Positions 4,314 to 29,323 of a stretch of 36,671 nucleotides of DNA are shown piece by piece (the first letter of the stretch is position 1; every line of letters begins with the position of its first letter). The translations under genes and the position numbers were made by a program. This DNA comes from an uncultured Ardenticatenales bacterium (GTDB taxonomy: Bacteria; Chloroflexota; Anaerolineae; Ardenticatenales; JAADHH01). The notes below the pieces were generated by a model. That model was not told where the DNA came from. It did not search any database and was given only the letters and a program-made list of their open reading frames with translations. The stretch is from positions 1-36,671 of the forward strand of contig CAYWAK010000004.1 in NCBI GenBank assembly GCA_964455755.1, read 5' to 3'.

Positions 4314-4356
4314 CGCCTTACCCCAGATACCTGACCCCCTCCCAACACCTACAATG

Positions 4357-5019: not shown

Positions 5020-5052
5020 TTTCTTACCTCCGTTACAATTGTGGCCGGTGGC

Positions 5053-5442
5053 CTAGCTCGGGTCTCTTTGCTCAACGATAAACTTAGGGCGGCCAAGGGC
5101 GTCCAGGTCATCTGCGGTCAGGGGCGTGCCACTGACCAGATTGCCTCGCACGTTGCGCGTCATGGGAATAGGCTTAAGCTGCATCGTAGGCCGCGCCATA
5201 GGGGCCGGAGCCAACTTGCCTTCACCGGTAACCGGTTCCCAGTCAGTCGTCTCGGCATAACCCGGCAATGCGTCCCAGTCTCCCTCAGCCTCCGTCGGTC
5301 CGGCCACGGTATAATAGTTTTCCTTCTTGATGTACCAGACTGAATCGCATCCGGCACATTTGACCTTCCCCTCAAAGTTCCAGAAGGGGTAAGGGTCAAG
5401 ATAGTTCTTTACGCCACACTTGGCGCAAACCATCATGGACAT
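5053..5442 (-). CDS. Small Zn-ribbon protein (CxxC...CxxC)
   Basis: 129 aa, MSMMVCAKCGVKNYLDPYPFWNFEGKVKCAGCDSVW... GAGGAGG lies 7 nt upstream of the ATG. No family recognised. Confidence 0.6.
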   Translation of the reverse strand: MSMMVCAKCGVKNYLDPYPFWNFEGKVKCAGCDSVWYIKKENYYTVAGPTEAEGDWDALPGYAETTDWEPVTGEGKLAPAPMARPTMQLKPIPMTRNVRGNLVSGTPLTADDLDALGRPKFIVEQRDPS

Positions 5443-5505
5443 GAGTTATCCTCCTCGTACAGGTACCAATTTCTCAACGAACAAAGTCCGTTTGTACATT
5501 GGCTG

Positions 5506-6879: not shown

Positions 6880-6985
6880 CGTCAACCCTCTCAAGTTTCG
6901 GGTTGTCGGTTTCGGGTTTTTGGTTTGGAGCTTGCCTTTCAACCTTTGACCTTGCAACTTGAATCGGGTTGATGCTCGATCACTC

Positions 6986-8389
6986 CTAGATAACCCCTGC
7001 CTCTTTCAGTTCTCCCAGCTTGAACCGGTCAAACCCCAGCAAATAGCGGTACACATCTTCGTTATCGTAACCGGCCGGGCGGCCCAACCACTTCACGCGT
7101 GGCGGACAGACCAGTTGTTGCTGCGGCGAAGTCGCATATAGAATCTTGCCATAGAGTCTGTCATCAAGCTCCATGACGTGCTGGCGATACTTGAAGTGTA
7201 TGTACTCGGCCACTTCGTCTGTATAGGTTACGCCACCAGAAGCCACCTGCTGTGCCAACATCTTAGTTTCTGCATCGGCTCGCGATTGGCCCTTTTGCCA
7301 GTCAGCCAGATCCGTGTAGGTTTTCACCTGCATAGGATGCGGCAGACGTTCGGTAACGACGCGCAGTTTCGGATCGCCGACGATGTCGTCTTCCAGATCG
7401 GGATCGTCCAGACCGACGGCACGCCAGATGCGATACCACAGCCGGTCGTGACCACCGCCAACCATGAAGAGGCCATCCTTACAGGGGTTCACGGCGTAGA
7501 TGTTAATGGCCAGGTCCCAGTTGCCGTAGCGTGGGCGCACCGAGCCATCCATGCCATACCAGCCCCAGTTGTAGTCAATGATGCGGATGATCCCTTCCGC
7601 GCCTGTCGCTTCTACCCACTGACCTTCGCCGGATACCGTATCGCGGTAGAGCAACGCCACCAAGACACCGATGGCCGCGTTGGTACCACCGACGTTGTCA
7701 CAGACCCACATCGCAGAACGGGTCGGGCGACCGCCCATTTCCTTGGGCACACCGGTGCCGTGTACAAAACCGCAGGCTGCCTGGGCTGCCGGGTCCAACT
7801 CGCCGGGGCGATCCTTTGCCGGCCCCCACTGGCCACGCTGACCAACCCAGCAATACACCAAGCGCTTGTTGATCTCGCGAAGCTGGCGATAGCCAATGCC
7901 GGCTGCATCTGTCTGACCTGGTGGCGCGTTCTCGATAACCACGTCCACGTGTGGGATCAGGGCCTTGAAGATCTCTTGCCCTTCCGCGGACTCCAGGTCC
8001 AGGGTGATGGACTTCTTGTTGCGCATCTCGTGGAGGAAGTGCAGGCCAACCGGCTCGCCCCACTCCTTGTCCTTTACCATATATTCTTTGCGACCGAAGG
8101 GAGTATACTGTCGCGCAGGATCCCCTCCGGGTGGTTCTACCTGGATCACATTGGCCCCTTCTTCAGAGAGCATTGAAGAAGCCCAGTGTCCGATCATCAT
8201 GCCTGTGGTGCAGTCCAACACACGCACGCTGTCGAGATTCTCCGGTTTTTCAAACGCATAATCCAACCGGAAGTTATCCTCGAGCCACAGAGGATACTCT
8301 TTGGCTGCGTCGCTCATCCCTGCATAAACTTCATCAGGAGTGAGGATAGGTACTGCAGGCCACTTGTAGCCCTCTCCACTTTGTGACAT
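6986..8389 (-). CDS. Family III (CaiB/BaiF-type) CoA-transferase, paralog 1
   Basis: VRVLDCTTGMMIGHWASSMLSEEGANVIQVEPPGGDPAR is clearly paralogous to the downstream gene. The track start at 8425 is a TTG. The ATG at 8389 (MSQSGEGYK) has AGGAGG ~10 nt upstream. Confidence 0.85.
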   Translation of the reverse strand: MSQSGEGYKWPAVPILTPDEVYAGMSDAAKEYPLWLEDNFRLDYAFEKPENLDSVRVLDCTTGMMIGHWASSMLSEEGANVIQVEPPGGDPARQYTPFGRKEYMVKDKEWGEPVGLHFLHEMRNKKSITLDLESAEGQEIFKALIPHVDVVIENAPPGQTDAAGIGYRQLREINKRLVYCWVGQRGQWGPAKDRPGELDPAAQAACGFVHGTGVPKEMGGRPTRSAMWVCDNVGGTNAAIGVLVALLYRDTVSGEGQWVEATGAEGIIRIIDYNWGWYGMDGSVRPRYGNWDLAINIYAVNPCKDGLFMVGGGHDRLWYRIWRAVGLDDPDLEDDIVGDPKLRVVTERLPHPMQVKTYTDLADWQKGQSRADAETKMLAQQVASGGVTYTDEVAEYIHFKYRQHVMELDDRLYGKILYATSPQQQLVCPPRVKWLGRPAGYDNEDVYRYLLGFDRFKLGELKEAGVI

Positions 8390-9386: not shown

Positions 9387-10853
9387 TTACGACGGCGGCG
9401 GGCAGCGATAGATGACCAGGTTCGAAGCATAGCCATAGGCTGCGCCGGCAAAGCGCTGCCCGACCGCGCAGTGCCCGGCCAAAACCATGCGCTCAAGCCG
9501 GGGGAACATGCCGTCATGCAGCACCAGATAGCGGGGATGGTAGCGATTCACGGCCCAAATCGCTGCGTCTTCGTAGCTCGTTTGCGCGGTGAGTTGCCGG
9601 GCAACATCCGGATAGATCAAACCGGCGAAATCTACCATCGGGCGCCGGGCATAATAGCCGATGATGCCGGTCTCCAGCACACCGACCCGCGCGTCCGCCT
9701 CTGTGTTTTCGGCCAGCCAGGTGCCCACGGCACGGTAGATGGGCACACGCCGGTCCACGTGCTGGCGCAGTTGCCAAACGCCCCAACCCTGCATCACCGC
9801 GAACCCCAGAATCGCCAGAGTCACCCCGGCCGCGGAAAAAGCCGGCCGCGAGACAACGCGCCGTAGCCCGGCATACGCCGCTTCAAAACCCAGGCCCACG
9901 GCTACCACAAAGCCCGGCACCAGCGGTGCGTAATACCAAAAGTATCGAGAGACGCCCAGCGCCGTGTAGGCGATGATGAACAGCGCCGGCCAGGCCAGAA
10001 TCAGGCCCCACCGGCGCCGCCGGACCAGCATAAAGAGGAGGCCAGCAGCAGCCAGCAGCGCTTCCAGCCGGTAGGTCCAGTACCGGCCATAGCCCGCCGC
10101 CAGGTCCGCGAGGCCCTGAGCAAAGGATTGGCTGGCTTTCAACGCCCCCTGATGCTGCTTAACGGCAAGCGTTGCCGGTATGGGCGAGCCGAAATACCAC
10201 CAGGCGAAGGCAAACCACGCCCCGCTGATGGCCACAAACAGGATCACCGGGAACCAGGGGATGTCTTGCTCGCGCCGCCGCAGCACATAATGGGCCGTCA
10301 GCAGCATCAGCAGCGGAACGGCATCGGCACGGGTAAGCAGAACCAGCGCGCCGGCAAGAGCGGCCAGCGCGTAGCGTCGCCGGACGTACCAGACGATCGT
10401 GGCCAGGCAGAGCATGTTGTAGAAGATCATTTCCCCACCAAATGTCGTGAAAAGGAGGGGAAACATGGGGTACAGCAGGAGCCCGGCCCAGCCGACCATG
10501 CGGGTCTTCCATTCCTGCGCCAACTGCCACAGCAAAAGCCCCCCGCCGGCCAAAGAGAGCGCACTCAGAAAATTGCTGAGCGCAGGCAACGCCGGCCACG
10601 CCTTGCCCAACAACGCCAGGAGCAGGGCATACAGCGGGGTCGTCGTGCTGAGCACATGCTGACCCGGGTTATAGACGAAGCCATGGCCGGCCAAAAGATT
10701 CTGGGCATAGCGGAAGGTGATGAAGGGATCGTCATAGGCCCAGTGGGCATAGGTCAGGGTTGCCGCACCGGTGACGAGGCCAACGTAAAGGATCGGCCAC
10801 CACCGGTGCCACCTCGCCTGCGCAATGTTCAATGCGAATGGCTCCCGCTTCAA
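9387..10853 (-). CDS. Polytopic GT-C-fold membrane glycosyltransferase (Aft/ArnT/PMT-like)
   Basis: 488 aa with more than 10 hydrophobic helices. The first extracytoplasmic loop carries AYDDPFITFRYAQNLLAGHGFVYNPG, the acidic DD motif typical of GT-C enzymes that use polyprenyl-phosphate sugars. TTG start with no clear SD, so the start is uncertain. Confidence 0.65.
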   Translation of the reverse strand: MKREPFALNIAQARWHRWWPILYVGLVTGAATLTYAHWAYDDPFITFRYAQNLLAGHGFVYNPGQHVLSTTTPLYALLLALLGKAWPALPALSNFLSALSLAGGGLLLWQLAQEWKTRMVGWAGLLLYPMFPLLFTTFGGEMIFYNMLCLATIVWYVRRRYALAALAGALVLLTRADAVPLLMLLTAHYVLRRREQDIPWFPVILFVAISGAWFAFAWWYFGSPIPATLAVKQHQGALKASQSFAQGLADLAAGYGRYWTYRLEALLAAAGLLFMLVRRRRWGLILAWPALFIIAYTALGVSRYFWYYAPLVPGFVVAVGLGFEAAYAGLRRVVSRPAFSAAGVTLAILGFAVMQGWGVWQLRQHVDRRVPIYRAVGTWLAENTEADARVGVLETGIIGYYARRPMVDFAGLIYPDVARQLTAQTSYEDAAIWAVNRYHPRYLVLHDGMFPRLERMVLAGHCAVGQRFAGAAYGYASNLVIYRCPPPS

Positions 10854-14536: not shown

Positions 14537-14565
14537 ATTATAACGTCAATTGGCTGACAGTGCAA
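14537..14565 (-). promoter_or_regulatory. Sigma-70-like box TTGCAC-N17-TATAAT, 9 nt upstream of the ATG at 14527 (near-leaderless)
   Basis: Minus strand: TTGCAC (14560-14565), 17 nt spacer, TATAAT (14537-14542). It shares the 11-mer ACGTTATAATC with the box at 20915. Confidence 0.3.
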
Positions 14566-16972
14566 ATATCCACACCAGGTCATGGTGGTAAACGGGCTGA
14601 AAGTATGGGCTGGCGAGCAAATCGGCAGCCACCAGGGGGTGTTTCTCGCCGAAGCCGATTTGCCCCTGGCGCTGTCCGAGGTACACATGGGTGACGCCCG
14701 CGGCGCGGAGCCACCGGGCCGTCTCGGCATCCCCGAAGTCGGCTTGCTGCACGCGGTGATAGAACGCCAGCAGCTCTTGCCGCATTTCCGGGCGCGCTGT
14801 TTTCTCGGTGCCATAGATCAAGGGCGGCACGGTATTGGCCCGGCCGGCCAGCAGCGGAATCCACCAGCCGGCGTCCGCGCCGACCACAACACTATCGCCA
14901 TACGCGGTGAAGCCGTTGACCAGAAATCGGGCGTCGGCCGGCGTGTTCTGGCGAATCCAGGCCATCGCTTCTGTATCGGGCCGGCTGACCATCTGATAGC
15001 GCGCGTCCCGCACACCGGCCATTGTTTTCGCCCCGAAAAGGGCTGCAACCAGGAAAAGGGCCACCATCATGCGTCCGGCCAGGGGTTGCCATCGTTGCAA
15101 AGCGCTCGTCAGGTCACCGAGCATGTACCCGACCAACAGGCCGGCCGGCATGTACAGGGCAATGAACACGGCAAAGTTGTTCACCACGCCGGTTCCCGGC
15201 AGGCCGAGCAGGCTCGGGTTGGCCAGCAACAGCAAGAAGACGGTCCACACGATGACGACCGTCGCCCCTCGCCGGCGATGCAGCAAGGCCCACAACGCGG
15301 CAAGCAGCATGAGGCCGATGAGCGCGGCCGGCAGGTAGGGGTGAATGTCGCCGACCGCGTTGTAGCCGGTACGGACGTAGGTGGACGTGTGCCCTTCGGC
15401 CAGCCGGCCATACATGTTCGCCAGCCGGCTGGAGAGCAAGTTCATCGCCCAGGGCAAATCAACCAACAGGGCGACGATTCCGACCAGACTCAAACGAGCC
15501 AGTGCCCGCCGCCCGCGCGCCGGCAATTCCCCTTCATGCGCAAGGTGGAAGGGGAGCCAGGCCAGGAAAAAGCAGAGATAGAACAGGAAGACCCGGTAGT
15601 GCGTCAGGCTCAACCCGGCCACGGCCAAGCCGGCGAGCACGATTTCCCGACGCCGGCGGCCTTCGATGGCGTGCAGAGTGAGCAGGATGGCCATGGGCAA
15701 CACCGCCTGACCGGCCAACTGCGTGTAGCGGCCCCAGTTGATGTAGAACTGAGGCATGGGTGAGAACAGCCCGGCCACCAGCACGGCCCCCACCCCGGCC
15801 CAGCGATTGTTTGTCAAGCGCACAGCCAGCGGGTAAAGTCCCAAAACGGCCAGGACGTTGAGCACCTGTCCGATTACGATCACCGCCGTTGCCGCCGGCT
15901 GGCCGCTCACCCAGTGCTGGGCGGCAACCAGACTGTGAAAGCCAAAGTGGTAGGTGAGGGAGCGCAGGGGCGCATAAGGCTCCCACGATTGGAAAAGCCC
16001 GCCCCGGTCAATCAGGAGCTGCGCCAGCATGGTGTGCTGGTACGAATCGCCCCACATCGGCACCTCCAACCCCCGCGCGGCGAGCCAGCGCGTCGCTGCT
16101 ACCAGCAGGATGAGTAACGAGAGCACCGGCAGCGGCAGCGAGGCCTGTCTGCGCGGCCGGAGAGCCGGCGCGCCCCGCCGAAAGCGCACCACAATGGCCG
16201 CGGCGGCCAGCACGAGTCCGGCGACTATCACCAGGCGGCCCATGCGCAAGTGCAGCACGTGCGCCCACAGCATGACCAGCGGCGCGAGGGCTGCGCTCAG
16301 TGCCGGCGCTACGGTCAGCCGCTCGCTCCAGCCCGCCGCGTCTGCTGGCTGGAGCCAAAGGAGCAGAGCCAGGCCGGGCAAAAGGAGCAAGGCCGCCAAC
16401 GCCAGCCCCCAGGGGATTGCCTGAGCCATCTCGCCGGCCAGGGCAAGGAGCAGGCGCAGCGGGTCGTAATGCAACCGGAAAACCAGTTGCCCTTCCTGAG
16501 GCTGCCCGGCCAGGTAGAGCGCGCCGTCTTCGTAGGATTCGGCCGGCCCCTGCCAGGCAGTGAATGCGTCGCCCGGCTGTGCAGTGGGAGATTCCAGGAC
16601 GAAGAAGTATCTCCTACTGTCCGACCCCGATTGGACAGGAAAGGAAAAGGTGTGATAAGCATTGTCAACGACATCCGAAGCGGCAACGGTGACTGTGGCC
16701 AGGTCCTCGGTGCTCTCCGGGTTCGCTCGCAGATGGAAGATGAGGGGCCGGCTGTTCGGCCGCGCGTAGGTAGCGAGCAGGACTTCCACGCCGTTGAGCC
16801 CGCCCCACCGCGCGACGAAGGTCTGTCCTACGGTGTGCGGGCCGTAGATTTCTCCCGCCGGGATGTTGGCAGTCTGGCCTTGCACAGTTTCGGTCCAGGG
16901 TGTGCAGCCGGAAAGAGCGGCCACCAAGGCCAGCAGGAGGAGGAGATTTGTGTACTTCGAAGGCCACAACAT
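14546..16972 (-). CDS. Large polytopic membrane protein (GT-C-like, tentative) with lipobox signal and extracytoplasmic N-terminal ~130 aa module
   Basis: 808 aa. MLWPSKYTNLLLLLALVAALSGC carries an LSGC lipobox. Residues ~43-170 (GQTFVARW...FHLRANPE...YHTFSFP...RRYFFVLESP...GDAFTAW) are homologous to the C-terminus of CDS 20988..22889. About 14 TM helices follow, then a C-terminal soluble domain. Confidence 0.65.
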   Translation of the reverse strand: MLWPSKYTNLLLLLALVAALSGCTPWTETVQGQTANIPAGEIYGPHTVGQTFVARWGGLNGVEVLLATYARPNSRPLIFHLRANPESTEDLATVTVAASDVVDNAYHTFSFPVQSGSDSRRYFFVLESPTAQPGDAFTAWQGPAESYEDGALYLAGQPQEGQLVFRLHYDPLRLLLALAGEMAQAIPWGLALAALLLLPGLALLLWLQPADAAGWSERLTVAPALSAALAPLVMLWAHVLHLRMGRLVIVAGLVLAAAAIVVRFRRGAPALRPRRQASLPLPVLSLLILLVAATRWLAARGLEVPMWGDSYQHTMLAQLLIDRGGLFQSWEPYAPLRSLTYHFGFHSLVAAQHWVSGQPAATAVIVIGQVLNVLAVLGLYPLAVRLTNNRWAGVGAVLVAGLFSPMPQFYINWGRYTQLAGQAVLPMAILLTLHAIEGRRRREIVLAGLAVAGLSLTHYRVFLFYLCFFLAWLPFHLAHEGELPARGRRALARLSLVGIVALLVDLPWAMNLLSSRLANMYGRLAEGHTSTYVRTGYNAVGDIHPYLPAALIGLMLLAALWALLHRRRGATVVIVWTVFLLLLANPSLLGLPGTGVVNNFAVFIALYMPAGLLVGYMLGDLTSALQRWQPLAGRMMVALFLVAALFGAKTMAGVRDARYQMVSRPDTEAMAWIRQNTPADARFLVNGFTAYGDSVVVGADAGWWIPLLAGRANTVPPLIYGTEKTARPEMRQELLAFYHRVQQADFGDAETARWLRAAGVTHVYLGQRQGQIGFGEKHPLVAADLLASPYFQPVYHHDLVWIFALSAN

Positions 16973-17038
16973 GGGAGCCTCATTATCACAGCGTCTAGAA
17001 TGTTCTATGACGAATGCTTCAGCGATACGAATTGATGG

Positions 17039-17067
17039 ATTGTAACACTGATCTCGCTGAATGACAA
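17039..17067 (-). promoter_or_regulatory. Sigma-70-like promoter TTGTCA-N17-TACAAT upstream of the 808-aa gene
   Basis: Minus strand: TTGTCA (17062-17067), 17 nt spacer, TACAAT (17039-17044). It lies in the 230 nt spacer, ~65 nt upstream of the ATG at 16972. A second TGTGATAAT box (extended -10-like) lies 9 nt before the ATG. Confidence 0.35.
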
Positions 17068-17202
17068 CTGTTGACTTGTGGCAGATGAAAAGGACTCATA
17101 CAGCCGTCCCGTCCACTGCCAGGTAGCCGTACATCCAGCGGCGCATCTTTCCCCCCACCCTGTCATTCTTGGGCGCCAGCACGTACTTCTCATCTACCCC
17201 TG

Positions 17203-18567
17203 TCACCGTCCCAGTCGCCAGCGAAAGTAATTGCGCACCTCGAAAAGCAGGGCGCGGGGGCCACGACGCCGCCACGTCTCGATTGCGCGGGCCACGAGGT
17301 AGGAGGCCGGCAAGCCCGGCGCCCCGGCCGGCGACATGGTTGCGAAGCCGGGGGGAGGCTCTCCCCGCAGGCGGTCGGCGGCCCGGCGTGGCTGCCGGCA
17401 GAAGGCGAACAGCGGTTCCGCGACCCGCTCCCACATCATTTGTGGGGCAAGGGCCTGGAAGCGAGGCGCATAACTTTCGCGCAGATCGGGCGTGGCCAAC
17501 AGGCGATGTAAGGCCTCGGCCAGGGCAGCGGGGTCTTGCGGCGGCACCGCCAACCCCACGCCCTCGCGCACTGCTAACGCACTCATCTCGTCCCCGGCGG
17601 TCAGGACCATCGGTAGGCCGGCCCAGATGTAATCCAGCACACGGGTGCGAAAGGCATAGCGACCCTCCAGGTGATCGCGATGCAGGCTGATGCCCACATC
17701 CGCTTCCAGCAGGTAATTTTGCCGCTGGTCAAACGGCACCCAATCGTTGAAAAAGACATGCCTATCCAGCAACCCGAGTTTGCGACTCATGTCACGGGCC
17801 AGCCCTACGCGCGCGCTGGGAAAAACGCCTGGATTGGGTCGTTTAATGCCCATAAAGAAAAGTCGCACGTTCTCCATCCGGGCAGCCAACGGTCCCATGG
17901 CCTCGACCGCGGTGACGGGGTCCAGCCAATCCCAAACGCCTCCGCCCCACAGGACAACGCGGTCGTCCGGAGCGATCCCCGGATAGACCCCCTTTAGCAC
18001 CTCGTTCGTATGGCGCGGGCGGTCGGGAGGCAGGCCGAAGGGCACCACGTCAATCAGTCGCCGGAGTGCCGGATCGTCGGCGTACGTTTGGGGATTGACC
18101 CGGCCGGCGGCCACCAGCAACCCAATCCAGAAATCGCGTTGGCGTTCGCTGGCGCAGAGGAAGAAGTCACCGGCCCGCAGTTGCGCCGACATGGTGTCCA
18201 GCTCCCAGCGCAGGACGCCGGCCTGCACCTTTTCCGATTTTGCGTAGTACGTTTCCAGGTTCTCCAGCACGACGGGGTCGTAGAGATCCAGGACAAGGAT
18301 GTGGCTCCCGGCAGACAGGGACGGGTGTCGGGCCAGAGCGCGGCCCTGCGTAATGACGACGTCGTGGTCGCGCACCAGCGCCGGCAACGTTTGCGGATCG
18401 TAGCGCTGCCAGCGGAACGGCTCCGCGGGCAAGTTGCTTTCATTGGGCACGGCCAGCGTGACCTGGTGCACACGGCTCAACAGGCGGGCAAAAGCCAGCG
18501 CGCGAATCGCCGGCCCGGCCATCTGCCGGCCAACATAATCGAGGGAGAGTACCAAAATGCGGGACAC
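17203..18567 (-). CDS. GT-B fold glycosyltransferase (GT4-like)
   Basis: The track ORF (to 18732) would overlap the upstream gene by 160 nt. The GTG at 18565-18567 lies 2 nt after the upstream TGA, with AAAGGA upstream, and gives VSRILVLSLDYVGRQMAGPAIR (typical GT-B N-terminus). The C-terminal half is GT4-like (RVLDYIWAGLPMVLTAGDE). It ends with the shared C-terminal tag. Confidence 0.8.
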   Translation of the reverse strand: MSRILVLSLDYVGRQMAGPAIRALAFARLLSRVHQVTLAVPNESNLPAEPFRWQRYDPQTLPALVRDHDVVITQGRALARHPSLSAGSHILVLDLYDPVVLENLETYYAKSEKVQAGVLRWELDTMSAQLRAGDFFLCASERQRDFWIGLLVAAGRVNPQTYADDPALRRLIDVVPFGLPPDRPRHTNEVLKGVYPGIAPDDRVVLWGGGVWDWLDPVTAVEAMGPLAARMENVRLFFMGIKRPNPGVFPSARVGLARDMSRKLGLLDRHVFFNDWVPFDQRQNYLLEADVGISLHRDHLEGRYAFRTRVLDYIWAGLPMVLTAGDEMSALAVREGVGLAVPPQDPAALAEALHRLLATPDLRESYAPRFQALAPQMMWERVAEPLFAFCRQPRRAADRLRGEPPPGFATMSPAGAPGLPASYLVARAIETWRRRGPRALLFEVRNYFRWRLGR

Positions 18568-18569
18568 AA

Positions 18570-20906
18570 TCAGGTCCTTTGTTGCCAGCGCCACTGGATG
18601 TACGCCTTGGCCTCGTTCCACAAAGCGGCCGGCCCGTGGTAGCGGAACATGTCCCAGCTTTTGCGCGCCAGGGTCAAGGGCGTGTCGTGGCTCCGGCCAT
18701 GGGCGATGGGGCTGGAGAGAAAGTCCGACCACGGCTCTACATCATCGTCGTCGTTGGCGGCGACGCCGTTGCCCGCAGGACGCGCCACTTGCTGCTGCAA
18801 TATCTCGGCGAAGCGGCGGGCCGAACGTTCCCAGGAAAGCGTCTGCACCTCCTCGTAGCCGGTCTCGATGAGGCGCTGTCGCAGTGGGTCATCATCCAGC
18901 AAGCGCAGCAGGGCGTGGGCGACGGCCTGGGGGTTTGGGTCGGCGAGCAGGGCGTTCTCCTCGTGGCGCAACAGATCGGCGGTCGTCTCGCCGGCCAACT
19001 CGACCACGGGGCACCGGCACGCCATCATCTCGAAGGGAATCAGCGAGCAATTGGTCGGCGAGAGGGAAAGGCCCACCGTTGCACCGGAATAGAGCCGGGC
19101 CAACTCGTCGTGGTTGAGGATTCCGCGATTGGTGTGCGGGAAAGGGATTGGATGGCCCCATGTGCCGCGCGTTCCGAAGAGAACGATTTCGACATCGGGG
19201 CGAGCCTGGGCCACGCGAGCGAGCGCCTCGATGCCCAGATCGAAGCAGCGGCGAGGCGTGCTGGGCCGCGCGTAGAAGACGATGCGCGGCCGGTCGGGTG
19301 GTGGCTCCGGTCGCGGATAGTAGGTCAGCCGGTCCACGCCAAAGGGAAAGTGCGCGGTCTCCATGCCATACCGTTCGCGTAAGAGGCGAGCCAGCCAGGG
19401 CCCCAGGGTGATGGCAAAGAGGGGCAGGCGGTACGTCCCTTCGGCATAAAGATATTGTGTACCCATCGCGTAAAAGTACGGCTCGAAGTCCTGCACAAGG
19501 TAGAAGTTTCGCCGGCTGGAACGGCACCGCGCAGTCACGTAGGCGCTGGGCCAGGTAGTCGCGATGAGGGCGTCGGCAGGGGGCAGGTTGTTCCAGCCCT
19601 CTACGATTTCCGCACCGGTTTCAAAGAAATGTTGGTGGATGAATTGCGCTGTGCGATTCTGGCCTACACCGGGCACCGGTTCGACCAGCAGCCGCACTTT
19701 GTGTCCGAAATTGACGAGGGAACGGGCCAGGCGAAAAATGTCGGTGTGGCCGCCCGAGCCGGCGATGGGACGCGAGACAAGCCAGTTGATGACCAGCGGC
19801 GTAGCCTTGTGCCGATCTGGGTGCGCGTGTGTCGTGGAAGCAATCTCCTGCAACGTCTCACGAAGCTTTTCCGCGGCGGCCTCCGGGCGATAGCGGTCCA
19901 GGGCCTGTTGCCGGGCCGCTTCCCCGATGCGCCGGCACAGATCAGGTTCCTCGATCAGCCGCGTCAGGGCATTGCGCCACGCGGCGGGGTCGCCGGCGAG
20001 AAAGCCTGTCTCACCGTCCTGGACAGCGAACTCGAAGGCGTCTATGCGGCTGGCCACGACCGGCCGACCTACCAGCGCCGCTTCCATCCACTTGATTTCG
20101 CTTTTGGCGCGGCAGTACGGGTTCCCCTGCTCCAGCAGCGCGAGGACGACATCCACGGAAGCGATGGCCGCCGGCAGTTTGCGCCACGCCAGCAGGGGCA
20201 GGCGTTGCACCCGCTCGCCAAAAACGTCGAATTCCGGCGGCAATCGCAGCGGGCCTCGCACGTGCAGATCCACGAACGGGTAGCGGACCATGACCTCGTG
20301 GAGAGCGCCGGCCGCCTCCAGGAAATCTTTGTCATGGGTGGCCGTGCCACTGAAGTAGCCGATGACGAAGCGATCATCGTGCGGCGCGCGGCGCCGGATG
20401 GCTTCATCGGAGAGACGGATCATCTCTGCGCTGGCGGCGTTACGCACCACGTAGGCCGCCGGCACACCGCAGCGACGGACGCGACCGGCCAAATAGTTTG
20501 TCGCCGTGAGCACGGCATCGCACTGCTCCATCGTAGCCCGGTAGCGAGCGGTGCCCTGCACGTAAAGGTCGCGTTCTGCGGGAGACATGCTGTGCAAGGC
20601 GTCCACGCGACCGGCCAGATGCGGCTCAAAGACGAGGTCGTCTACGTCGTAGAGCACCAGCTTGCCGGCACGGTGAGCAGCGGCGATGAGCGCGCCGACG
20701 GTGTCATCGTAGGGCACACGGTGCAGGATCACCAAATCGTGCGCCAGTGCTTCTTGGGGCGACCAACCGGCAAAATAATCGGCCACGGTACTCTCGATGC
20801 CGAACAACTTCAGTTGCTCCGCGTGGTGGTCACAGCGGTACCGATCTGCGCCACCATGTTTGCAACCGGTGAGGAAGAAAACCGTTCTGGGCAGGGATTT
20901 GCTCAT
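18570..20906 (-). CDS. Two-module glycosyltransferase (N-terminal GT-B module A + C-terminal WsaF-like GT-B module B)
   Basis: Residues 8-355 are paralogous to CDS 24999..26282 (RYRCDHH, YDVDDLVFEP, IGYFSGTATHDKDF, CRAKSEIKWMEAALVGRPVVAS). Residues 371-706 are paralogous to the N-terminus of CDS 20988..22889 (INWLV...GSGGH, LVQDFEPYF, IVFYARPSTPRR, NCSLIPFEMMACRCPVV). Start is ATG 20906 or GTG 20912. Confidence 0.8.
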   Translation of the reverse strand: MSKSLPRTVFFLTGCKHGGADRYRCDHHAEQLKLFGIESTVADYFAGWSPQEALAHDLVILHRVPYDDTVGALIAAAHRAGKLVLYDVDDLVFEPHLAGRVDALHSMSPAERDLYVQGTARYRATMEQCDAVLTATNYLAGRVRRCGVPAAYVVRNAASAEMIRLSDEAIRRRAPHDDRFVIGYFSGTATHDKDFLEAAGALHEVMVRYPFVDLHVRGPLRLPPEFDVFGERVQRLPLLAWRKLPAAIASVDVVLALLEQGNPYCRAKSEIKWMEAALVGRPVVASRIDAFEFAVQDGETGFLAGDPAAWRNALTRLIEEPDLCRRIGEAARQQALDRYRPEAAAEKLRETLQEIASTTHAHPDRHKATPLVINWLVSRPIAGSGGHTDIFRLARSLVNFGHKVRLLVEPVPGVGQNRTAQFIHQHFFETGAEIVEGWNNLPPADALIATTWPSAYVTARCRSSRRNFYLVQDFEPYFYAMGTQYLYAEGTYRLPLFAITLGPWLARLLRERYGMETAHFPFGVDRLTYYPRPEPPPDRPRIVFYARPSTPRRCFDLGIEALARVAQARPDVEIVLFGTRGTWGHPIPFPHTNRGILNHDELARLYSGATVGLSLSPTNCSLIPFEMMACRCPVVELAGETTADLLRHEENALLADPNPQAVAHALLRLLDDDPLRQRLIETGYEEVQTLSWERSARRFAEILQQQVARPAGNGVAANDDDDVEPWSDFLSSPIAHGRSHDTPLTLARKSWDMFRYHGPAALWNEAKAYIQWRWQQRT

Positions 20907-20914
20907 GGTCACTG

Positions 20915-20943
20915 ATTATAACGTTACTCGTGACTTCAGGCAA
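20915..20943 (-). promoter_or_regulatory. Sigma-70-like box TTGCCT-N17-TATAAT, 8 nt upstream of the ATG at 20906 (near-leaderless)
   Basis: Minus strand: TTGCCT (20938-20943), 17 nt spacer, TATAAT (20915-20920). No SD precedes the start codon. Confidence 0.3.
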
Positions 20944-20987
20944 ATCCGGGGGTTGCGGCGGGTATAGTAGGGGGGAATGCCTCGCCT

Positions 20988-22889
20988 CTACTGCGTTTTC
21001 CGCCAGTGCAGGTAGCTGCGGATTTCCGCGCGCACGCCGGCCAGACCACGCTGCCTCCCGACGGTCAGGGCACGCAGCGGCAACTGCCACCAGGGGGTTG
21101 GCTGTACCAGGTGTTCCGGCGGCACCGGCACCGGTTCTTCCTCCAGCGAGACAGCACGATAGGCCAATTCGCCGGGAACCGGCCGGCCGTTCTCATAGCG
21201 GCCTTCGCCCGTGTCGTAGCGCCAGAGCGTGATCGCGTCTCCCCGGGCCGAGCCGGGCGCTTCCAGGAAGAAATAGAACTGGCGGCCCTGAGAAGTGGGC
21301 ACCGGCGGAAAGACAAAGGAGTGATACTTTGTGTCCTCCAACTCCAGAGCAGGGACGGCGACGGTGGCGATATCTGTCTGATCCTCCGGGTCGCGGCGCA
21401 GATGGAAGACCACCTCGCCGCTATTGAGCCGGTGATAGGTAGAGATGAGCAGATCAATGCGGTGAAGATTGTGGTGTTGGGCCACGAAAGTCTGGCCCAT
21501 GGTGCGTCCGGCGACAAGTTCGCCTGTCGGACGGCGCATTCGTCCGCCGGCGATCACCTGTGGCCGGAAGCGGAACAGCGTGGCAAGCAAATTGCGCGCA
21601 GTTGCCAGCCATGCCTTGCGACGCCGCTCTCCTCGGATGCGCGTGTCGAGTTCGTGCCAGATGGTTGCGCGTTCAACCTCGCGCCGCTCTTTCAGGCGCG
21701 CGATCTGTCGCTCGATTTCGCGCAGCAACTCGCGCGACTGTGGCGCGGCGGGCGCGGCGTCGCGTTGACCAATCAAGCGGCCCGGCTGCAGAGGCCGGCC
21801 GGCTGCGTCCGGCAGATTGCGCAACAGGATCGCTTCCACCTGGCGTGCGGCTCGCTCCCAGGTCAATGATTGCACCTCCCGGAAGGCGGTTTCCACCAGC
21901 CGGTCGCGCAGATGTTCGTCGTAGAGCAATTCCAGCACGGCGTCGGCAATGCTTTGTGGCGTAGGGTCGGCCAGCATGGCATTTACGCGATCCTGCATGA
22001 CCCCCTGGGTAGTTTCCACGCTCAAGTCCACGACGGCGCAGCGGCAAGCCATCATCTCGCGGGGGGCAAAGGAACAGTTCGTCAGGGAAAGGACAAGGCC
22101 CACAGTTGCGGACGAGTAGAGTTCGGCGAGTTGATCCACGGGCAAGACGCCGCGATTCACATAAGGAAAGGGCACCGCGTACGCCGAGAGGTCATCTGCG
22201 CCGAAGAAGACGATTTCGACATCGGGGCGTAGCCGATGGACGCGGGCCAACGCTTCCACGCCAAGCGAAAAGGCGCGTCGCGGTGTGCTCGGCCGGGCAT
22301 AAAAGACAACTCTCGGTCGCGTTGGCTTCGGCAGAGCGCGGGGATAGTAAATGGCGGTATCTACGGGGAAGTCGAAGTAATCGGCTTCCGCGTCATAACG
22401 ATCGCGTAACAGGTTGGTTAACCACGGGCCCAGGGTAATGGCGGTCATGCCCAAACGGTAGGTGTGCTCCGCTTCCAGGTATTCGGCGCTCATGGGTACA
22501 AAATAGGGCTCAAAGTCCTGCACAAAATAGAACTTGTGTGCGCGGGTATCTGCTTCGTACACCAGGTAGGCAGTCCGCCAATGCGTGGCCAGGAGGGCGT
22601 CGCTATCGTGGGTTATGCCATTCCAGCGGTGGATGTCCGCACCGAGGGGGAAGAAGTGCTCCTCGATAAAGCGGGCAATGCCGGCCTCGTCCGTATGTTG
22701 TGCCCATTCGTGGGGAACGACGTAGACACGTTGGTGATATCCGAAATCAGAGAGGTAGCGGATAATGCGGAAGATACCGAAATGGCCGCCGGCGCCTTTC
22801 CACGGCTCCGGAATGACCCAATTCAGGGTCAGCGGCCGGGTTTCTTCCTGGTCCCGTGCGGGCGGAGGCATTTGATTCACGGTGTGCAT
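20988..22889 (-). CDS. WsaF-like GT-B glycosyltransferase + central coiled coil + C-terminal ~130 aa module
   Basis: 633 aa. Residues 18-365 carry LNWVIPEPWKGAGGH, FVQDFEPYF, VVFYARPSTPRR and NCSFAPREMMACRCAVV; from memory this resembles WsaF-type rhamnosyltransferases. Residues 384-427 are charged and heptad-like (RELLREIERQIARLKERREVERA). Residues 455-585 carry GQTFVAQ...FHLRRDPE...YHSFVFP...RQFYFFLEAP...GDAITLW. The start overlaps the upstream stop by 13 nt. Confidence 0.8.
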   Translation of the reverse strand: MHTVNQMPPPARDQEETRPLTLNWVIPEPWKGAGGHFGIFRIIRYLSDFGYHQRVYVVPHEWAQHTDEAGIARFIEEHFFPLGADIHRWNGITHDSDALLATHWRTAYLVYEADTRAHKFYFVQDFEPYFVPMSAEYLEAEHTYRLGMTAITLGPWLTNLLRDRYDAEADYFDFPVDTAIYYPRALPKPTRPRVVFYARPSTPRRAFSLGVEALARVHRLRPDVEIVFFGADDLSAYAVPFPYVNRGVLPVDQLAELYSSATVGLVLSLTNCSFAPREMMACRCAVVDLSVETTQGVMQDRVNAMLADPTPQSIADAVLELLYDEHLRDRLVETAFREVQSLTWERAARQVEAILLRNLPDAAGRPLQPGRLIGQRDAAPAAPQSRELLREIERQIARLKERREVERATIWHELDTRIRGERRRKAWLATARNLLATLFRFRPQVIAGGRMRRPTGELVAGRTMGQTFVAQHHNLHRIDLLISTYHRLNSGEVVFHLRRDPEDQTDIATVAVPALELEDTKYHSFVFPPVPTSQGRQFYFFLEAPGSARGDAITLWRYDTGEGRYENGRPVPGELAYRAVSLEEEPVPVPPEHLVQPTPWWQLPLRALTVGRQRGLAGVRAEIRSYLHWRKTQ

Positions 22890-24998: not shown

Positions 24999-26282
24999 CT
25001 ACTGAAGGGCGGCCAACTGGGCCAGCACCTGTTCCATTTCATGGTGGATGCTGCGTTGAAAGGCGGCAAACGCCTCCTCCTGTTGGGCACTCATTTGCCG
25101 CAAGCCTTCCACCTGCGATTGTTGCTTCTCGATGACATCCTGCTGCCGCGTGATGTGCCGCAAGAGCCGGGCGATGATTTGCTCGGCCAACAGGGCGGCG
25201 GGCGGCGCAGGCGGTGCATCTGCCAACAGTGTTTGCAGCATGTCCCCAAACTCGCTGCTGCAACTTTCGGGCGTATAGCGGCGGTACACATCCTGTAACG
25301 CGGCCTGGCCAAGGGCATGGCGTCGCTCTGGATCACCAATCAATTCGTGCAGCGCCCGCTCCCAATCATCTGGGGTCTGCGCCAACAATCCGTTCTCCCC
25401 GTCCGTGATGGCCCATCTGTAGGCATCCGTCGGACTGGCGACGGTAGGAACGGCCACCGCGCCCGCTTCAAAATACTTGAGTTCGCTCTTTGCCCGGCAA
25501 AAGGGACTCTCTGTCTGCAGCGGCACAATGTTGATATCCGTTTGGGCAATGACGTGCGGCAGTTCACGCCAGGGCAGATAGGGCGTGCGTACGACACGAT
25601 CCAACAGCGGATCGAATTTGTAGCTCAGATTTAGTTCGCCGGCCACGTGCAGCCACACGTGCGGGTGAGCGCGCATCACCTTGACCAACACATCGGTAAT
25701 CGCGCGAAAGTCCCGATCGTGGGAGCCGCTCCCGCTGAAATAGCCGATAATCACGCGGTCATCGTCGGGCGAACGGTGGCGGTTCCGCTGCGCCTCCTCC
25801 GAGATACGCAGCAATTCGTCGCTCAGCACATTGCGATTGACGAAGGCCTGTTTGCCAAATCGGCGCGCAGCTTCTGCCAGGTATTCCGTCGGGACGAGCA
25901 CATGGCGACAACGTTGGAAGGTGGCTTCGTAGCCACGCAACACTTGCCGGTAGCGGCGGGCCTCTGCCGCCGTCATCGTATCCAACAGCGGCACCTGGCC
26001 GGCCGCCTCCGGATCGAAAATGAGATCATCGGTCTCGAACAATACCGGTTTATGCGCGAACTCCGTCAACGCCAGGAAATCGGCGATCAGGGGGGAGAAG
26101 GGCACTCGATGAAGGATAATAACATCATGAAGAGCCACATCCCCCAGGATTGTGGAGTCATCGTCCAGTTTCAGGGTGTTTTGAATTCCCAGCAAGCGCA
26201 ACTGCGCTTGCTGGTGGTCACAGCGATAGCGGCGGGTATCCCCCGGCGTACCGCTCACAAAAAGCACGGCTCGTTCGGTCAT
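24999..26282 (-). CDS. GT-B glycosyltransferase (module A) with ~70 aa C-terminal coiled-coil tail
   Basis: 427 aa with RYRCDHQ, FETDDLIFDP, IGYFSGSGSHDRDF and CRAKSELKYFEAGAVAVPTVAS. The tail is LLAEQIIARLLRHITRQQDVIEKQQSQVEGLRQMSAQQEEAFAAFQRSIHHEMEQVLAQLAALQ. There is a 4-nt ATGA overlap with the wzm stop. Confidence 0.75.
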   Translation of the reverse strand: MTERAVLFVSGTPGDTRRYRCDHQQAQLRLLGIQNTLKLDDDSTILGDVALHDVIILHRVPFSPLIADFLALTEFAHKPVLFETDDLIFDPEAAGQVPLLDTMTAAEARRYRQVLRGYEATFQRCRHVLVPTEYLAEAARRFGKQAFVNRNVLSDELLRISEEAQRNRHRSPDDDRVIIGYFSGSGSHDRDFRAITDVLVKVMRAHPHVWLHVAGELNLSYKFDPLLDRVVRTPYLPWRELPHVIAQTDINIVPLQTESPFCRAKSELKYFEAGAVAVPTVASPTDAYRWAITDGENGLLAQTPDDWERALHELIGDPERRHALGQAALQDVYRRYTPESCSSEFGDMLQTLLADAPPAPPAALLAEQIIARLLRHITRQQDVIEKQQSQVEGLRQMSAQQEEAFAAFQRSIHHEMEQVLAQLAALQ

Positions 26283-27109
26283 ACTTCCTCACTGAAGCGC
26301 GGGCTAAATCGGCGGAAAACGGCATATCCTACGACAAGAAACGCAACCGCCGTGAAAAAGGTACGCAGGAAGAAGTCCCCCGCCGGCGGAATGCCTTTGT
26401 AAAGCACCTCGCGATAGGCCGCCACCAACGAGGCCATCGGGTTGAGATAGAATGTCCAGCTCCACACATTGATGGTCATCCCCAACACAACCTGTTTGTG
26501 CGGCAAGATTTCGATGGGGTAGAACACGGGCGTGAGGAAGAACCACGCCAGCATGACAACCTCCATGATTACGCGCATATCGCGGTAGAAGACGTTGATA
26601 GTACCCAAGATAAAGGTCAGCCCAATCGTGAAGAAAAGCTGCGTCACGACGATAACGGGGAGTAGCAGTACCCAGACGGTGACCCGAATGCCGGAAAGGT
26701 ACAGCAAAGGAAAAAGGACCAGCAGAGAGAGCAGGAAGTTTACCAGGTTGGATAGGACCAGGGAAATCGGCAGGACTTCGTGCGGAAAATAGACCTTGCG
26801 CACCAGGTCGGCATGGCTAACCACGCTGTCCAGCCCACCGACAACAGACATAGAGAACCAGTTCCAGGGCAACAGGCCGATGAGGACAAAAGCCGGAAAA
26901 TGCTCAACGTTGCCGCTGGGAATCATTACCGTGAAGACGGCCGTGAAAACGATCATCATCAGCAATGGGTTGATGAGACTCCACAAGAAGCCGAGAACGG
27001 AGTTCTTGTACCGCACCTTCAGGTCTCGCAACACCAGGTTGGCAAGAAGGTCGCGGTAGGTATAAAGCTCACGAAGGTCGTTTGGCAAATTCGTTATCTG
27101 TGCGATCAT
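26279..27109 (-). CDS. wzm: ABC-2 type polysaccharide exporter permease
   Basis: 276 aa. RDLLANLVLRDLKVRYKNSVLGFLWSLINPLLMM is the hallmark N-terminus of Wzm/TagG/KpsM permeases. Six TM helices. Confidence 0.9.
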   Translation of the reverse strand: MIAQITNLPNDLRELYTYRDLLANLVLRDLKVRYKNSVLGFLWSLINPLLMMIVFTAVFTVMIPSGNVEHFPAFVLIGLLPWNWFSMSVVGGLDSVVSHADLVRKVYFPHEVLPISLVLSNLVNFLLSLLVLFPLLYLSGIRVTVWVLLLPVIVVTQLFFTIGLTFILGTINVFYRDMRVIMEVVMLAWFFLTPVFYPIEILPHKQVVLGMTINVWSWTFYLNPMASLVAAYREVLYKGIPPAGDFFLRTFFTAVAFLVVGYAVFRRFSPRFSEEV

Positions 27110-27113
27110 GGCC

Positions 27114-28127
27114 TCAATAAAGCTGCTTCACGCGCTGCCTGAGCTTTGCAAACCACCCCTTTTCGTAGGTAGCAATCTGGTCTTCCAATTCCCGAATGCG
27201 GGCATCCTTTTCCCGAATCGCTTTGAGGAGCTCGGCAGATCGTGCATCCTTTTCTGCGTAGAGCGCATAAATCCATTCGGACAAGGGTTTCCCGTCTGGT
27301 GTAGAATCTTTTCCAAACCGATACATGTCATTACAATCCTTACAAATCGTAAACCTGACCCCATGCTGCGAAATTCGCTCCCGCTTTTCCACTACATCGG
27401 TCAGGCGATCCGCAGTCAAATTGCCAAGCACCGCCTCTCCTCCCAAATCGTGACAGCAGGAAAGCACGTCCCCGTTCCAGGCGACGAAAAGCGTGCCGGC
27501 GAAGATATCGCAGCGACCAAAATTGACCGGCGACAGGGGAGTTTCGCAAACCAGGGGATTGTTGAAGTGCCCGCCCCGATTGTGACACTGTGAAAAGAGG
27601 ATTTCGTGGATACCAAGGTCTTCCAGGTACGTACGGAGCGCGGCCAAATGGGACTCCGTTTGGCGCGTAACGCTTACGTTCGCCGAAACCTTGGCCCTTC
27701 CCTCCGCCATCTGAACAAAACCCCGGATGTTGCCGGCGGCTCTCTCCAGAGAAAGCCCTCCCATCATCTGTGAATACAACTCTTCGTGATGTCCGTTAAA
27801 GCTGATGATAATGGTTTCCAGGCCGGCGTCCAGCAGCTTCTCTGCGCGCCTCGGCGACAAGGTGGAAGCATTCGTCGTCAGCACGGTCGAGACCCGTCCG
27901 GACAAATAGGCGATGAACCGCGGCAGGTCAGGATTCAAGGTAGGTTCGCCGATGCCAGAGAAACTCACAGCCTGCACCGTGTCGCACGCAAGCACACCGT
28001 CCGCGATTGGCCGGAAGACGTCCCAGGACATCTTGCCCAGGGGGCGCGTCAGCGATTCGCGGGGACAGTGCAGGCAATGTGTGTTGCAAAGGTTCGTAGC
28101 CTCGAATTCGACTATTTCCATTGCCAT
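27114..28127 (-). CDS. Radical SAM enzyme with truncated SPASM/twitch-like auxiliary motif and C-terminal coiled coil
   Basis: 337 aa. CNTHCLHC (CxxxCxxC) is at residues 14-21, followed by GIGEPTL. C-x12-G-x4-C (CDIFAGTLFVAWNGDVLSC) and CKDC follow. The tail is EKDARSAELLKAIREKDARIRELEDQIATYEKGW. The start overlaps the wzt stop by 16 nt (10 nt if the second ATG is used). The stop lies 4 nt before the wzm ATG. Confidence 0.85.
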   Translation of the reverse strand: MAMEIVEFEATNLCNTHCLHCPRESLTRPLGKMSWDVFRPIADGVLACDTVQAVSFSGIGEPTLNPDLPRFIAYLSGRVSTVLTTNASTLSPRRAEKLLDAGLETIIISFNGHHEELYSQMMGGLSLERAAGNIRGFVQMAEGRAKVSANVSVTRQTESHLAALRTYLEDLGIHEILFSQCHNRGGHFNNPLVCETPLSPVNFGRCDIFAGTLFVAWNGDVLSCCHDLGGEAVLGNLTADRLTDVVEKRERISQHGVRFTICKDCNDMYRFGKDSTPDGKPLSEWIYALYAEKDARSAELLKAIREKDARIRELEDQIATYEKGWFAKLRQRVKQLY

Positions 28128-29323
28128 TCGCCCGCCAACGAAACCATGCCGTATTTTTCGTCGACCGCGCGCACCCGAAAATGGTACAAGCGGTCATGAT
28201 AATCATAGATTATCGTATCCTCCCAATCTCGAATTGCGGCTGAAAGCTCGTAGCGGCCTTCCAGCAAAGAGAGCCGGCCAATCCGGTAACGTATGACCCC
28301 CTCATTCTCGAGGGCCGGCAATTCATGGCCGGCGAACTGGGTATTGGGCCCGGAAACGTGGGCACCATCGCTGCGGTGGACGGCCAGACCAAAAACGGGG
28401 CGTTCAATTCGGCGTGCGGCACGGAAGTGAATCTCGACGACCAGGGGATCCCCGGTACGGAATACCTGCTTGTCCTGGCCGTGATCATCCAACAGGCGTA
28501 CGTCTGTGATTTTGGCCTCGCCGCTGCCCCAGCGCCGAAGCTCGCCTTCCTCCTCGTTCGGCGTTAGCGTCCCCTCTTCTTTCTGCCAGGTGCGGTCGAG
28601 GTAGCGGGCAACGACCGCTGTTGATGATCCGTCGGCAACCACCGTGCCTCCGTCCAACCAAATTACCCGCGAACACACCGATTGCACCATGTCCGCGCTG
28701 TGGGAGACGAAAAAGATCGTCACGCCCCGGTCATGCAATTGATCAATGCGGTCAAAGCACTTGCGCTGAAACGAATTGTCCCCCACCGCCAGCACTTCGT
28801 CCACAATCAGGATGTCCGGGTTCACCATCGTGGCGATGGAAAAGCCAAGGCGCACTTGCATACCCGACGAGTAGTGCTTCACGGGCATGTCTATGAAGCT
28901 GCCGATGTCCGCAAAGTCTACGATTTCGTCGAAGCGCCGGCGGATTTCCGGACGCGGAACGCCCAGCACCGAGGCGTTGAGAAAGATGTTTTCACGGCCG
29001 GTCAAGTCGGCGTGAAAGCCGGCGCCAAGTTCGAGCAGGGCCGACAAGCGTCCGTGAACTTCCACATGGCCCACCGTCGGTTTCAGGATGCGCGTGGCCA
29101 GTTTGAGCAGCGTACTCTTGCCTGCCCCGTTCGGACCAATGATACCTATCGATTCCCCCTGCTCCACCTGGAAGCTGATGTTGCGCAAGGCCCAAAACTC
29201 TTCCCGGCTACCACTCTCTCGTTGAAAAAGGTTGATTACGGTCTCCTGGAAAGAGCGGGGACGATCATGATGCAGTATGAATTTTTTGGAGACACCATCA
29301 AATCGAATAGCTACGCTCAACAC
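28112..29323 (-). CDS. wzt: ABC polysaccharide exporter ATPase with ~150 aa C-terminal extension (Wzt_C-like glycan-binding domain, inferred)
   Basis: 403 aa. Walker A GPNGAGKSTL, signature YSSGMQVRL and Walker B ILIVDEVLAVGD are present. Residues ~255-403 extend beyond the NBD (KITDVRLLD...VVEIHFRA...GRYELSAAI), as in cap-recognising Wzt proteins. GTG start. Confidence 0.9.
   Translation of the reverse strand: MLSVAIRFDGVSKKFILHHDRPRSFQETVINLFQRESGSREEFWALRNISFQVEQGESIGIIGPNGAGKSTLLKLATRILKPTVGHVEVHGRLSALLELGAGFHADLTGRENIFLNASVLGVPRPEIRRRFDEIVDFADIGSFIDMPVKHYSSGMQVRLGFSIATMVNPDILIVDEVLAVGDNSFQRKCFDRIDQLHDRGVTIFFVSHSADMVQSVCSRVIWLDGGTVVADGSSTAVVARYLDRTWQKEEGTLTPNEEEGELRRWGSGEAKITDVRLLDDHGQDKQVFRTGDPLVVEIHFRAARRIERPVFGLAVHRSDGAHVSGPNTQFAGHELPALENEGVIRYRIGRLSLLEGRYELSAAIRDWEDTIIYDYHDRLYHFRVRAVDEKYGMVSLAGEWQWK

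Follow-up and report, generated by a model that had tools for sequence, protein, structure and literature searches.

How a long polymer is held during its synthesis and after its export in glycan pathways that depend on an ATP-binding cassette (ABC) transporter is partly understood, mainly from a few Gram-negative O-antigen systems. In the Wzm/Wzt locus of Citrobacter youngae O1, the GT-C glycosyltransferase ORF12 (GT136) carries at its C-terminus a carbohydrate-binding module (CBM; residues 503-652), which binds the unmodified O-polysaccharide backbone (PMC11127046). On the cytoplasmic side, the Klebsiella pneumoniae O7 chain terminator ORF6 has a predicted Ig-like CBM beside a coiled coil, described as the sole such case (PMC11231755). 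Precedents are therefore published for each side of the membrane separately. Here, we describe a module that is found in two enzymes of a single pathway, an 808-residue membrane protein (P0001) and a 633-residue glycosyltransferase (P0002), both encoded in a 36,671-nucleotide stretch of contig CAYWAK010000004.1 (the window) from an uncultured Chloroflexota metagenome-assembled genome (MAG; 2.98 Mb, 89% complete), whose relatives are labelled Ardenticatenales. Using computation throughout, we established the homology of the two copies, their fold, the size of the family, its fusion partners and gene contexts, and the predicted topology of its hosts.

The copy in P0001 compares with ORF12 by layout only: both are beta-rich modules, extracytoplasmic in P0001 by prediction, fused to a GT-C transferase in an ABC-transporter-dependent glycan locus, and the CBMs of EmbA/B/C and AftD can be likened to the present module in the same way. 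Unlike in ORF12, however, the module of P0001 follows a lipoprotein signal at the N-terminus, with three additional helices ahead of the first transmembrane helix of the GT-C fold (GT-C TM1). The copy in P0002 is likened to O7 ORF6 by description only, both being predicted cytoplasmic beta-sandwiches of enzymes in an ABC-transporter-dependent glycan pathway, beside a coiled coil in ORF6 and a possible one in P0002; in relatives of the window, the methyltransferase whose gene immediately follows wzt also bears the module, although the host in the window is a WsaF-like GT4. The presence in this cluster of Wzt_C (PF14524), a cytoplasmic jelly-roll of the same pathway, indicates that sandwiches that bind glycan in the cytoplasm are nothing unusual for such systems, but Wzt_C sits on the transporter rather than on a transferase and has no detectable relationship to the module. 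A precedent for one sandwich family in both compartments is provided by the ASRT/ASRAH superfamily of predicted sugar-binding beta-sandwiches, which has intracellular and extracellular lipoprotein versions (PMC2739507); this is a different family, since the present module is without a Pfam match, and ASRT domains are mostly sensors that are not fused to the inside and outside enzymes of one pathway. What is new here is the predicted deployment of one unnamed family on both sides of the membrane within a single pathway, together with its broad list of partners and a stand-alone form that is coupled to wzt.

The shared module and its fold

The two host genes and their module copies lie at the following positions of the window.

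14546-16972, minus strand: 808-residue open reading frame (ORF), P0001; ORF call confirmed
20988-22889, minus strand: 633-residue ORF, P0002; ORF call confirmed
16460-16876, minus strand: module copy A, P0001 residues 33-171 (hidden Markov model (HMM) envelope), predicted to be extracytoplasmic and lipid-anchored
21141-21545, minus strand: module copy B, P0002 residues 449-583 (BLASTP and HMM envelope), predicted to be cytoplasmic

BLASTP aligns residues 28-166 of P0001 with residues 444-578 of P0002, with 55 of 140 positions identical (39%), 59% positives, 6 gap positions and an E-value for the pair of 2e-27. This bears out the original prediction, made from the sequence of the window, that both proteins contain the same module of about 130 residues, which it had placed correctly in each. 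Seven of the eight motif blocks on which it relied fall at aligned, homologous positions (GQTFVA, TY.R.NS, FHLR..PE, D[IL]ATV.V.A, YH[ST]F.FP, YFF/FYF..LE.P and GDA.T.W). The eighth, YE.G, does not: YEDG of P0001 pairs with YDTGE of P0002 and YENG of P0002 with YLAG of P0001, so that, judging from the alignment, this similarity is a coincidence between two different loops. The YEDG of P0001 is instead part of a D-Y-x-x-G loop (P0001 ~146-150, P0002 ~557-561) that is 80-99% conserved in membrane-linked modules only and variable in the cytoplasmic clade, and that may mark a site of function or contact specific to one compartment. At 22 columns, an identical residue is present at >=80% in both compartments, and these columns include the polar residues E456, Q465, T483, R486, N488, D505 and S532 (P0002 numbering).

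The genome encodes a third copy on contig C28 (L003 1375 to beyond 3390), in the N-terminal region of a DUF6541 paralogue whose initial hydrophobic segment ends in LLSC. This module has diverged, and has 25-27% identity to that of P0002. The paralogue is encoded beside an SMC-like gene and does not lie in a glycan cluster.

To survey the family we used a profile (A1) of 12 modules, which, when searched against 1.84 billion representative proteins, matched 4,587 of them at E<=1e-3, of which 2,036 remained at E<=1e-10. By this measure the module is a large, unnamed family of domains of ~135 residues. The relatives matched in a search with a 6-sequence alignment were almost exclusively from Chloroflexota MAGs. 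As the original prediction had anticipated, we could assign the module to no named family: a Pfam-A scan of the 12 modules returned zero matches even at E<=10, and the module was likewise unmatched in NCBIfam and in profile searches of PDB sequences, so that by sequence, in these three databases, it does not belong to a named CBM family. Wzt_C was considered as a possible relative and rejected, with hhalign of A1 against the C-terminal domain of the window's own Wzt giving a probability of 0.35% and Pfam being likewise negative.

Residues 446-585 of P0002 were modelled by AlphaFold2 (AF2) as a ten-stranded jelly-roll beta-sandwich (pLDDT 93.4), and AF2 and Foldseek agree on a discrete beta-sandwich of the kind expected for a CBM. 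The closest folds identified by Foldseek were those of a PBCV-1 minor capsid/DUF5901 protein (TM-score 0.63-0.66) and of mycobacteriophage and staphylococcal phage fibre/baseplate domains (TM-score up to 0.69), with CBM22, CBM6, CBM61 and CBM51 among the neighbours at a TM-score of ~0.4. Foldseek searches of PDB and BFVD yielded only generic jelly-roll neighbours and no assignable family. The description of the module as all-beta and CBM-like has thus held up under structure prediction and Foldseek, two of the checks that had been proposed for it.

Topology and catalytic context of the two copies

Outside the module, P0001 consists of two parts.

16904-16972, minus strand: lipoprotein-type signal peptide, residues 1-23 (...ALSG, then C23), with a short h-region and then LSGC (residues 20-23)
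14546-16459, minus strand: GT-C-fold membrane domain and C-terminal soluble domain, DUF6541 (PF20176, AF2 and Foldseek)

The h-region comprises 13 residues before LSGC. Of 86 aligned homologues, 85 share the lipobox Cys, at a median position of 20, and a relaxed lipobox fits 77 of the 86. Since the genome also encodes two Lgt and one LspA, P0001 combines a lipobox of the form [LVI][ASTVI][GAS]C after a short h-region with the availability of the processing enzymes, as expected for a bacterial lipoprotein, and its acylation and cleavage are predicted on this basis.

The DUF6541 model (PF20176) scores 58.4 bits against a gathering cut-off of 29 and covers residues 193-582, leaving the module outside; in a literature search, DUF6541 was mentioned in no paper. 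In the AF2 model of full-length P0001, generated from an alignment of 86 sequences (pLDDT 90.9, pTM 0.92), copy A is formed by beta strands between residues 27 and 169 with a pLDDT of ~90 or more, and four helices (171-207, 215-239, 246-266 and 280-299) separate it from a loop in which D309 and H313 are invariant across the 86 homologues. It is the fourth of these helices that corresponds to GT-C TM1. The best Foldseek matches for P0001 are STT3, AglB, PglB, DPY19, AftA, AftD and EmbB, with E-values from 2e-9 to 1e-3, and AftB. With its polytopic architecture, a first extracytoplasmic loop that contains an acidic residue, and this structural similarity, P0001 is, according to its model, a GT-C-fold enzyme. 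Because the best whole-protein structural matches are STT3, AglB and PglB, we considered an oligosaccharyltransferase action, in which P0001 may transfer glycan to protein or to another acceptor rather than adding a side branch. The C-terminal outside domain of DUF6541 contains an invariant D700-x-G702-W703-W704..P706 motif (14840-14890; P0001 ~698-712).

As a further guide to topology we used the density of Lys and Arg (K+R) in the 86 homologues, which alternates without exception between predicted inside loops (0.15-0.52) and outside segments (0.03-0.09). In order, the values are 0.25 for the n-region, 0.07 for the module, 0.15, 0.07 and 0.22 for the successive loops, 0.03 for the D309 loop and 0.09 for the C-terminal domain. 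This alternation places the module on a common, predicted outer face with the catalytic loop and the C-terminal domain. Copy A itself has a K+R density of 0.067 and a net charge of -9.4 across the 86 homologues, and its conservation among orthologues equals that of the transmembrane (TM) core.

P0002 can be divided, beside the module, into three parts.

21810-22832, minus strand: WsaF-like GT4 (GT-B) catalytic domain, residues ~20-360 (Pfam)
21555-21740, minus strand: charged helical linker with a possible short coiled coil, residues ~384-445 (from the sequence)
20991-21092, minus strand: C-terminal basic amphipathic tag (...RGLAGVRAEIRSYLHWRKTQ), from a comparison of C-termini

The catalytic part resembles WsaF of the S-layer glycan pathway of Geobacillus stearothermophilus, a pathway that is also ABC-transporter-dependent: WsaF_C (58.1 bits) and WsaF_N (31.8 bits), both against a cut-off of 27, and Glyco_trans_1_4 (36.7 bits) all match above their Pfam thresholds, which identifies P0002 as a WsaF-like GT4. 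The two WsaF models end at residue 318 and cover the GT-B core only, so that the linker, module and tag lie beyond the likeness to WsaF. Residues 384-430 of the linker form a Pro-free charged helix of ~45 residues, in which a crude heptad count gives only 62% a/d occupancy, so that a coiled coil is no more than plausible. The tag, roughly RG..A...E[IAV][RK].Y[LIF].WR, is common to three glycosyltransferases of the cluster (20991-21092, 18570-18650 and 17203-17280, all on the minus strand) and is also carried by the homologues P0003 and P0010; from its sequence, it is likely to be a common membrane or complex docking helix.

P0002 has neither a signal peptide nor a TM or other hydrophobic segment. 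Since, in addition, GT-B enzymes use cytoplasmic nucleotide sugars, P0002 is predicted to be cytoplasmic. The topology originally proposed for the two copies can therefore be retained as a prediction: that P0001 has an LSGC lipobox, an extracytoplasmic module and a GT-C-like enzyme outside is in agreement with the conserved Cys, Lgt and LspA, the loop charges and the fold found by Foldseek, and that the glycosyltransferase copy is cytoplasmic agrees with the lack of a signal peptide and TM segment in P0002. The presence of the module on both faces of the membrane is thus well supported as a prediction.

Partners, gene context and ancestry of the family

To see which enzymes carry the module, we classed architectures by simple hydropathy for the 160 best of the 4,587 representatives. 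Stand-alone TM-module(-TM) proteins of ~200-260 residues were the most numerous (57 of 160), followed by polytopic membrane proteins with the module at the C-terminus (38) or at the N-terminus (25) and by hosts without a hydrophobic segment (26); a few were tandem arrays of 2-4 copies. Many family members are multi-TM enzymes of 600-690 residues with a C-terminal module, as in the layout of ORF12. Polytopic hosts include DUF6541, DUF2142, PMT_2, YfhO and DUF7657 (GT-C type) as well as the Acyl_transf_3 O-acyltransferase (AT3), and soluble hosts are GT4s, several of them WsaF-like or double GT4, and S-adenosylmethionine (SAM) methyltransferases (Methyltransf_11), in which no signal peptide or hydrophobic segment was found. 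All of the named partners scanned come from families that build or decorate glycans, yet their folds are unrelated, which is the pattern expected of a substrate-binding accessory domain. Like a CBM, the module is attached to carbohydrate-active enzymes, namely the GT-C families, AT3, GT4s and the methyltransferases of glycan loci. In the stand-alone proteins, the two TM helices are flanked by K/R-rich N-termini and, mostly, K/R-rich C-termini, which predicts that the module lies outside.

The exporter of the pathway is encoded in the window by two genes.

28112-29323, minus strand: Wzt, the nucleotide-binding subunit of the ABC transporter, which bears a Wzt_C CBM (ABC_tran and Wzt_C, 110 bits)
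26279-27109, minus strand: Wzm, the ABC-2 membrane subunit (PF01061, 57 bits)

Wzt defines the export pathway to which the enzymes with the module belong. The genes of the cluster are co-directional, in the order wzt (Wzt_C), a radical SAM/SPASM gene, wzm, a GT4 gene, a GHL15+CBM_4_9 gene and P0002 (GT4+module), after which the cluster continues with a double GT4, a GT4, P0001 (DUF6541+module), a DUF2142 gene and two further membrane proteins. As its longest ORF, the 509-residue GT4 (17203-18732, minus strand) overlaps the 3' end of the 780-residue double GT4 (18570-20912, minus strand) by ~160 nt, and its true start is probably further downstream. Genes for flagellin, FliD and a sortase are found a few kb away.

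In a genome of the same family (G003) the cluster is syntenic and the GT4+module gene is kept, with 72% identity in the glycosyltransferase core and in the module alike; copy B therefore evolves no faster than the core. The same genome has a gene for a 230-residue TM-module-TM protein (L008 3849-4541) that overlaps the start of wzt by an ATGA, its end being at -4 nt, with a GGAGGA Shine-Dalgarno sequence. Similar stand-alone genes end 23 nt inside the likely wzt start in G021 (L012 ~9600-10330, minus strand) and 5 nt before it in G024 (L019 ~9730-10400, minus strand). From this gene arrangement, the stand-alone protein seems to be an additional component that faces outward and is coupled to the exporter. 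Unlike these three relatives, the window has no stand-alone TM-module-TM gene upstream of wzt.

Two other relatives share the gene order wzt, methyltransferase+module, double GT4+module, GT4, with the methyltransferase fusion at 6232-7668 of L057 in G101 and 7779-9221 of L060 in G140 (~480 residues) and the double GT4 fusion at 3257-6268 and 4826-7771, respectively (~1000 residues). Two different cytoplasmic enzymes of one locus thus bear the module in these genomes, and the methyltransferase fusion is a candidate chain terminator. Elsewhere, G086 has two adjoining GT4+module genes and a DUF6541+module gene on the same contig, and in G031 a distance of 10 kb separates a double GT4+module gene from a DUF6541+module gene. 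An orthologue of P0001, P0164 (62%), has a PMT_2 gene as its neighbour and no Wzm/Wzt or GT4+module gene near it. Overall, the module is present in 26 of 41 related genomes, and GT4 fusions occur in only a handful of ~190 sampled genomes.

The module of P0002 shares 54% identity with other GT4-linked modules, 47-52% with foreign DUF6541 modules and 39-42% with that of P0001. In maximum-likelihood trees of 164 modules, computed in a quick and a careful version, 19 GT4- or methyltransferase-linked modules formed one group apart from the DUF6541 modules, and P0001 fell among the latter. Support for the group was 92 by the Shimodaira-Hasegawa-like approximate likelihood ratio test (SH-aLRT) in the quick tree and 66 by ultrafast bootstrap (UFboot) and 93 by SH-aLRT in the careful tree, and the group was present in 68% of bootstrap trees. 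Because it was delimited after the quick tree had been seen, and because two full-length cytoplasmic hosts, P0063 and P0153, lie outside it, we limit our conclusion to a few, old transfers into the cytoplasm, with one to three origins of the cytoplasmic module being possible, and to no recent exchange. On the tree and the identities, the modules of P0001 and P0002 are deep paralogues. Recent copying of the P0002 module from P0001 was rejected, as it is closer to other GT4- and DUF6541-linked modules and the two are split in the tree.

Possible roles of the module

On balance, we lean towards the view that the module is a CBM-like jelly-roll accessory domain which grips the polymeric acceptor for each enzyme separately. 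In P0001, the module would be exported first, after the lipoprotein signal, and would be lipid-anchored by its N-terminus on the outer face of the membrane, beside the catalytic loop and C-terminal domain of the GT-C-fold transferase. In P0002, it would lie in the cytoplasm between the charged linker behind the GT-B domain and a C-terminal tag for targeting to a membrane or complex. In each case it would keep the chain exported by Wzm/Wzt close to the active site of its own enzyme, aiding chain extension or length control inside and post-export modification or transfer outside, and both copies may bind the same polymer. Several points weigh against this view: we infer that the module binds glycan, which ligand it binds and whether the two copies cooperate at all; the topology is a prediction; the fold similarity is generic, the best matches being capsid and fibre domains and named CBMs reaching a TM-score of only ~0.4; and neither the Pfam-A scan at E<=10 nor hhalign found a sequence link to CAZy/Pfam CBMs or to Wzt_C.

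The original prediction saw in the two copies a hand-over device that recognises the same ligand on both sides, the polymer being held before export and re-captured by the outside enzyme. In an extended form of this reading, the inside copies, on a polymerase or terminator, would hold the chain, and an anchored outside copy, fused to the GT-C enzyme here and stand-alone beside wzt in relatives, would belong to the exporter complex and catch the chain as it emerges. Such a trans-membrane relay would account for genomes in which both forms occur at one locus (G000, G031 and G086) or in one genome (G003, G059, G101 and G140), for the tight or translational coupling of the stand-alone outside form to wzt in G003, G021 and G024, and for the polar positions common to both compartments. 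We nevertheless find it unsupported and consider it unlikely. The two copies are deep paralogues, and the cytoplasmic modules form an old clade of their own that shows neither exchange nor co-evolution with the outside copy in their genome; the D-Y-x-x-G loop is conserved outside only; the cytoplasmic form is missing from most module-bearing genomes; the P0001 orthologue P0164 stands outside any such cluster, with no partner; and the module is also found on enzymes unrelated to Wzm/Wzt export (YfhO, AT3 and PMT_2). Its fusion to many different enzymes fits an enzyme-by-enzyme grip on the substrate better than a dedicated two-sided relay. We are similarly doubtful that a single module serves as a pathway-wide handle, with the outside copy acting as a receiver subunit of the exporter that would pass the chain to outside enzymes.

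It also seems improbable that the module is a protein-protein head, a jelly roll that would oligomerise or dock its host enzyme without binding sugar, for example by capping a trimeric coiled coil, after the design of C1q, TNF or phage fibres, or by assembling GT-C enzymes. Capsid jelly rolls, TNF-like/C1q heads and fibre domains are indeed among its Foldseek neighbours, and a charged helix precedes the module in P0002, but TM-scores to TNF/C1q heads are low (0.27-0.38), and by the crude heptad measure this helix is only a weak candidate for a coiled coil. Tandem arrays of 2-4 copies would suit such a head, while the occurrence of the module at either terminus of at least 8 unrelated scaffolds, and as a membrane-anchored stand-alone protein, is typical of ligand-binding accessory domains. 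Finally, although a membrane-proximal sensor of a polyprenyl-(pyro)phosphate-linked primer or lipid-linked sugar donor, rather than of the polymer repeat, would find these ligands on both faces, and would fit the predicted position of the outside module near the membrane (with TM1 on one side and a lipid anchor on the other, or flanked by two TM helices), the basic amphipathic tag adjoining the inside module and the strong conservation across very different pathways of polar residues that could suit a carrier-lipid head group, the cytoplasmic methyltransferase hosts are candidate terminators, whose site of action is the chain's distal end, and we regard this reading as very unlikely.

Whichever of these roles applies, the family is large, unnamed and easily expressed, and its hosts range from polymerase-like GT4s and candidate terminators in the cytoplasm to GT-C modifiers outside, with an O-acyltransferase and a membrane protein coupled to wzt among them. 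Should the module not bind glycan, it would still be a widespread, uncharacterised domain of envelope enzymes that is worth naming. If, as we favour, it is a glycan-binding accessory domain, it would constitute a new CBM family and could serve to predict which enzymes share a polymer as their substrate, and it would allow a direct test of whether recognition of the chain before and after export is related.

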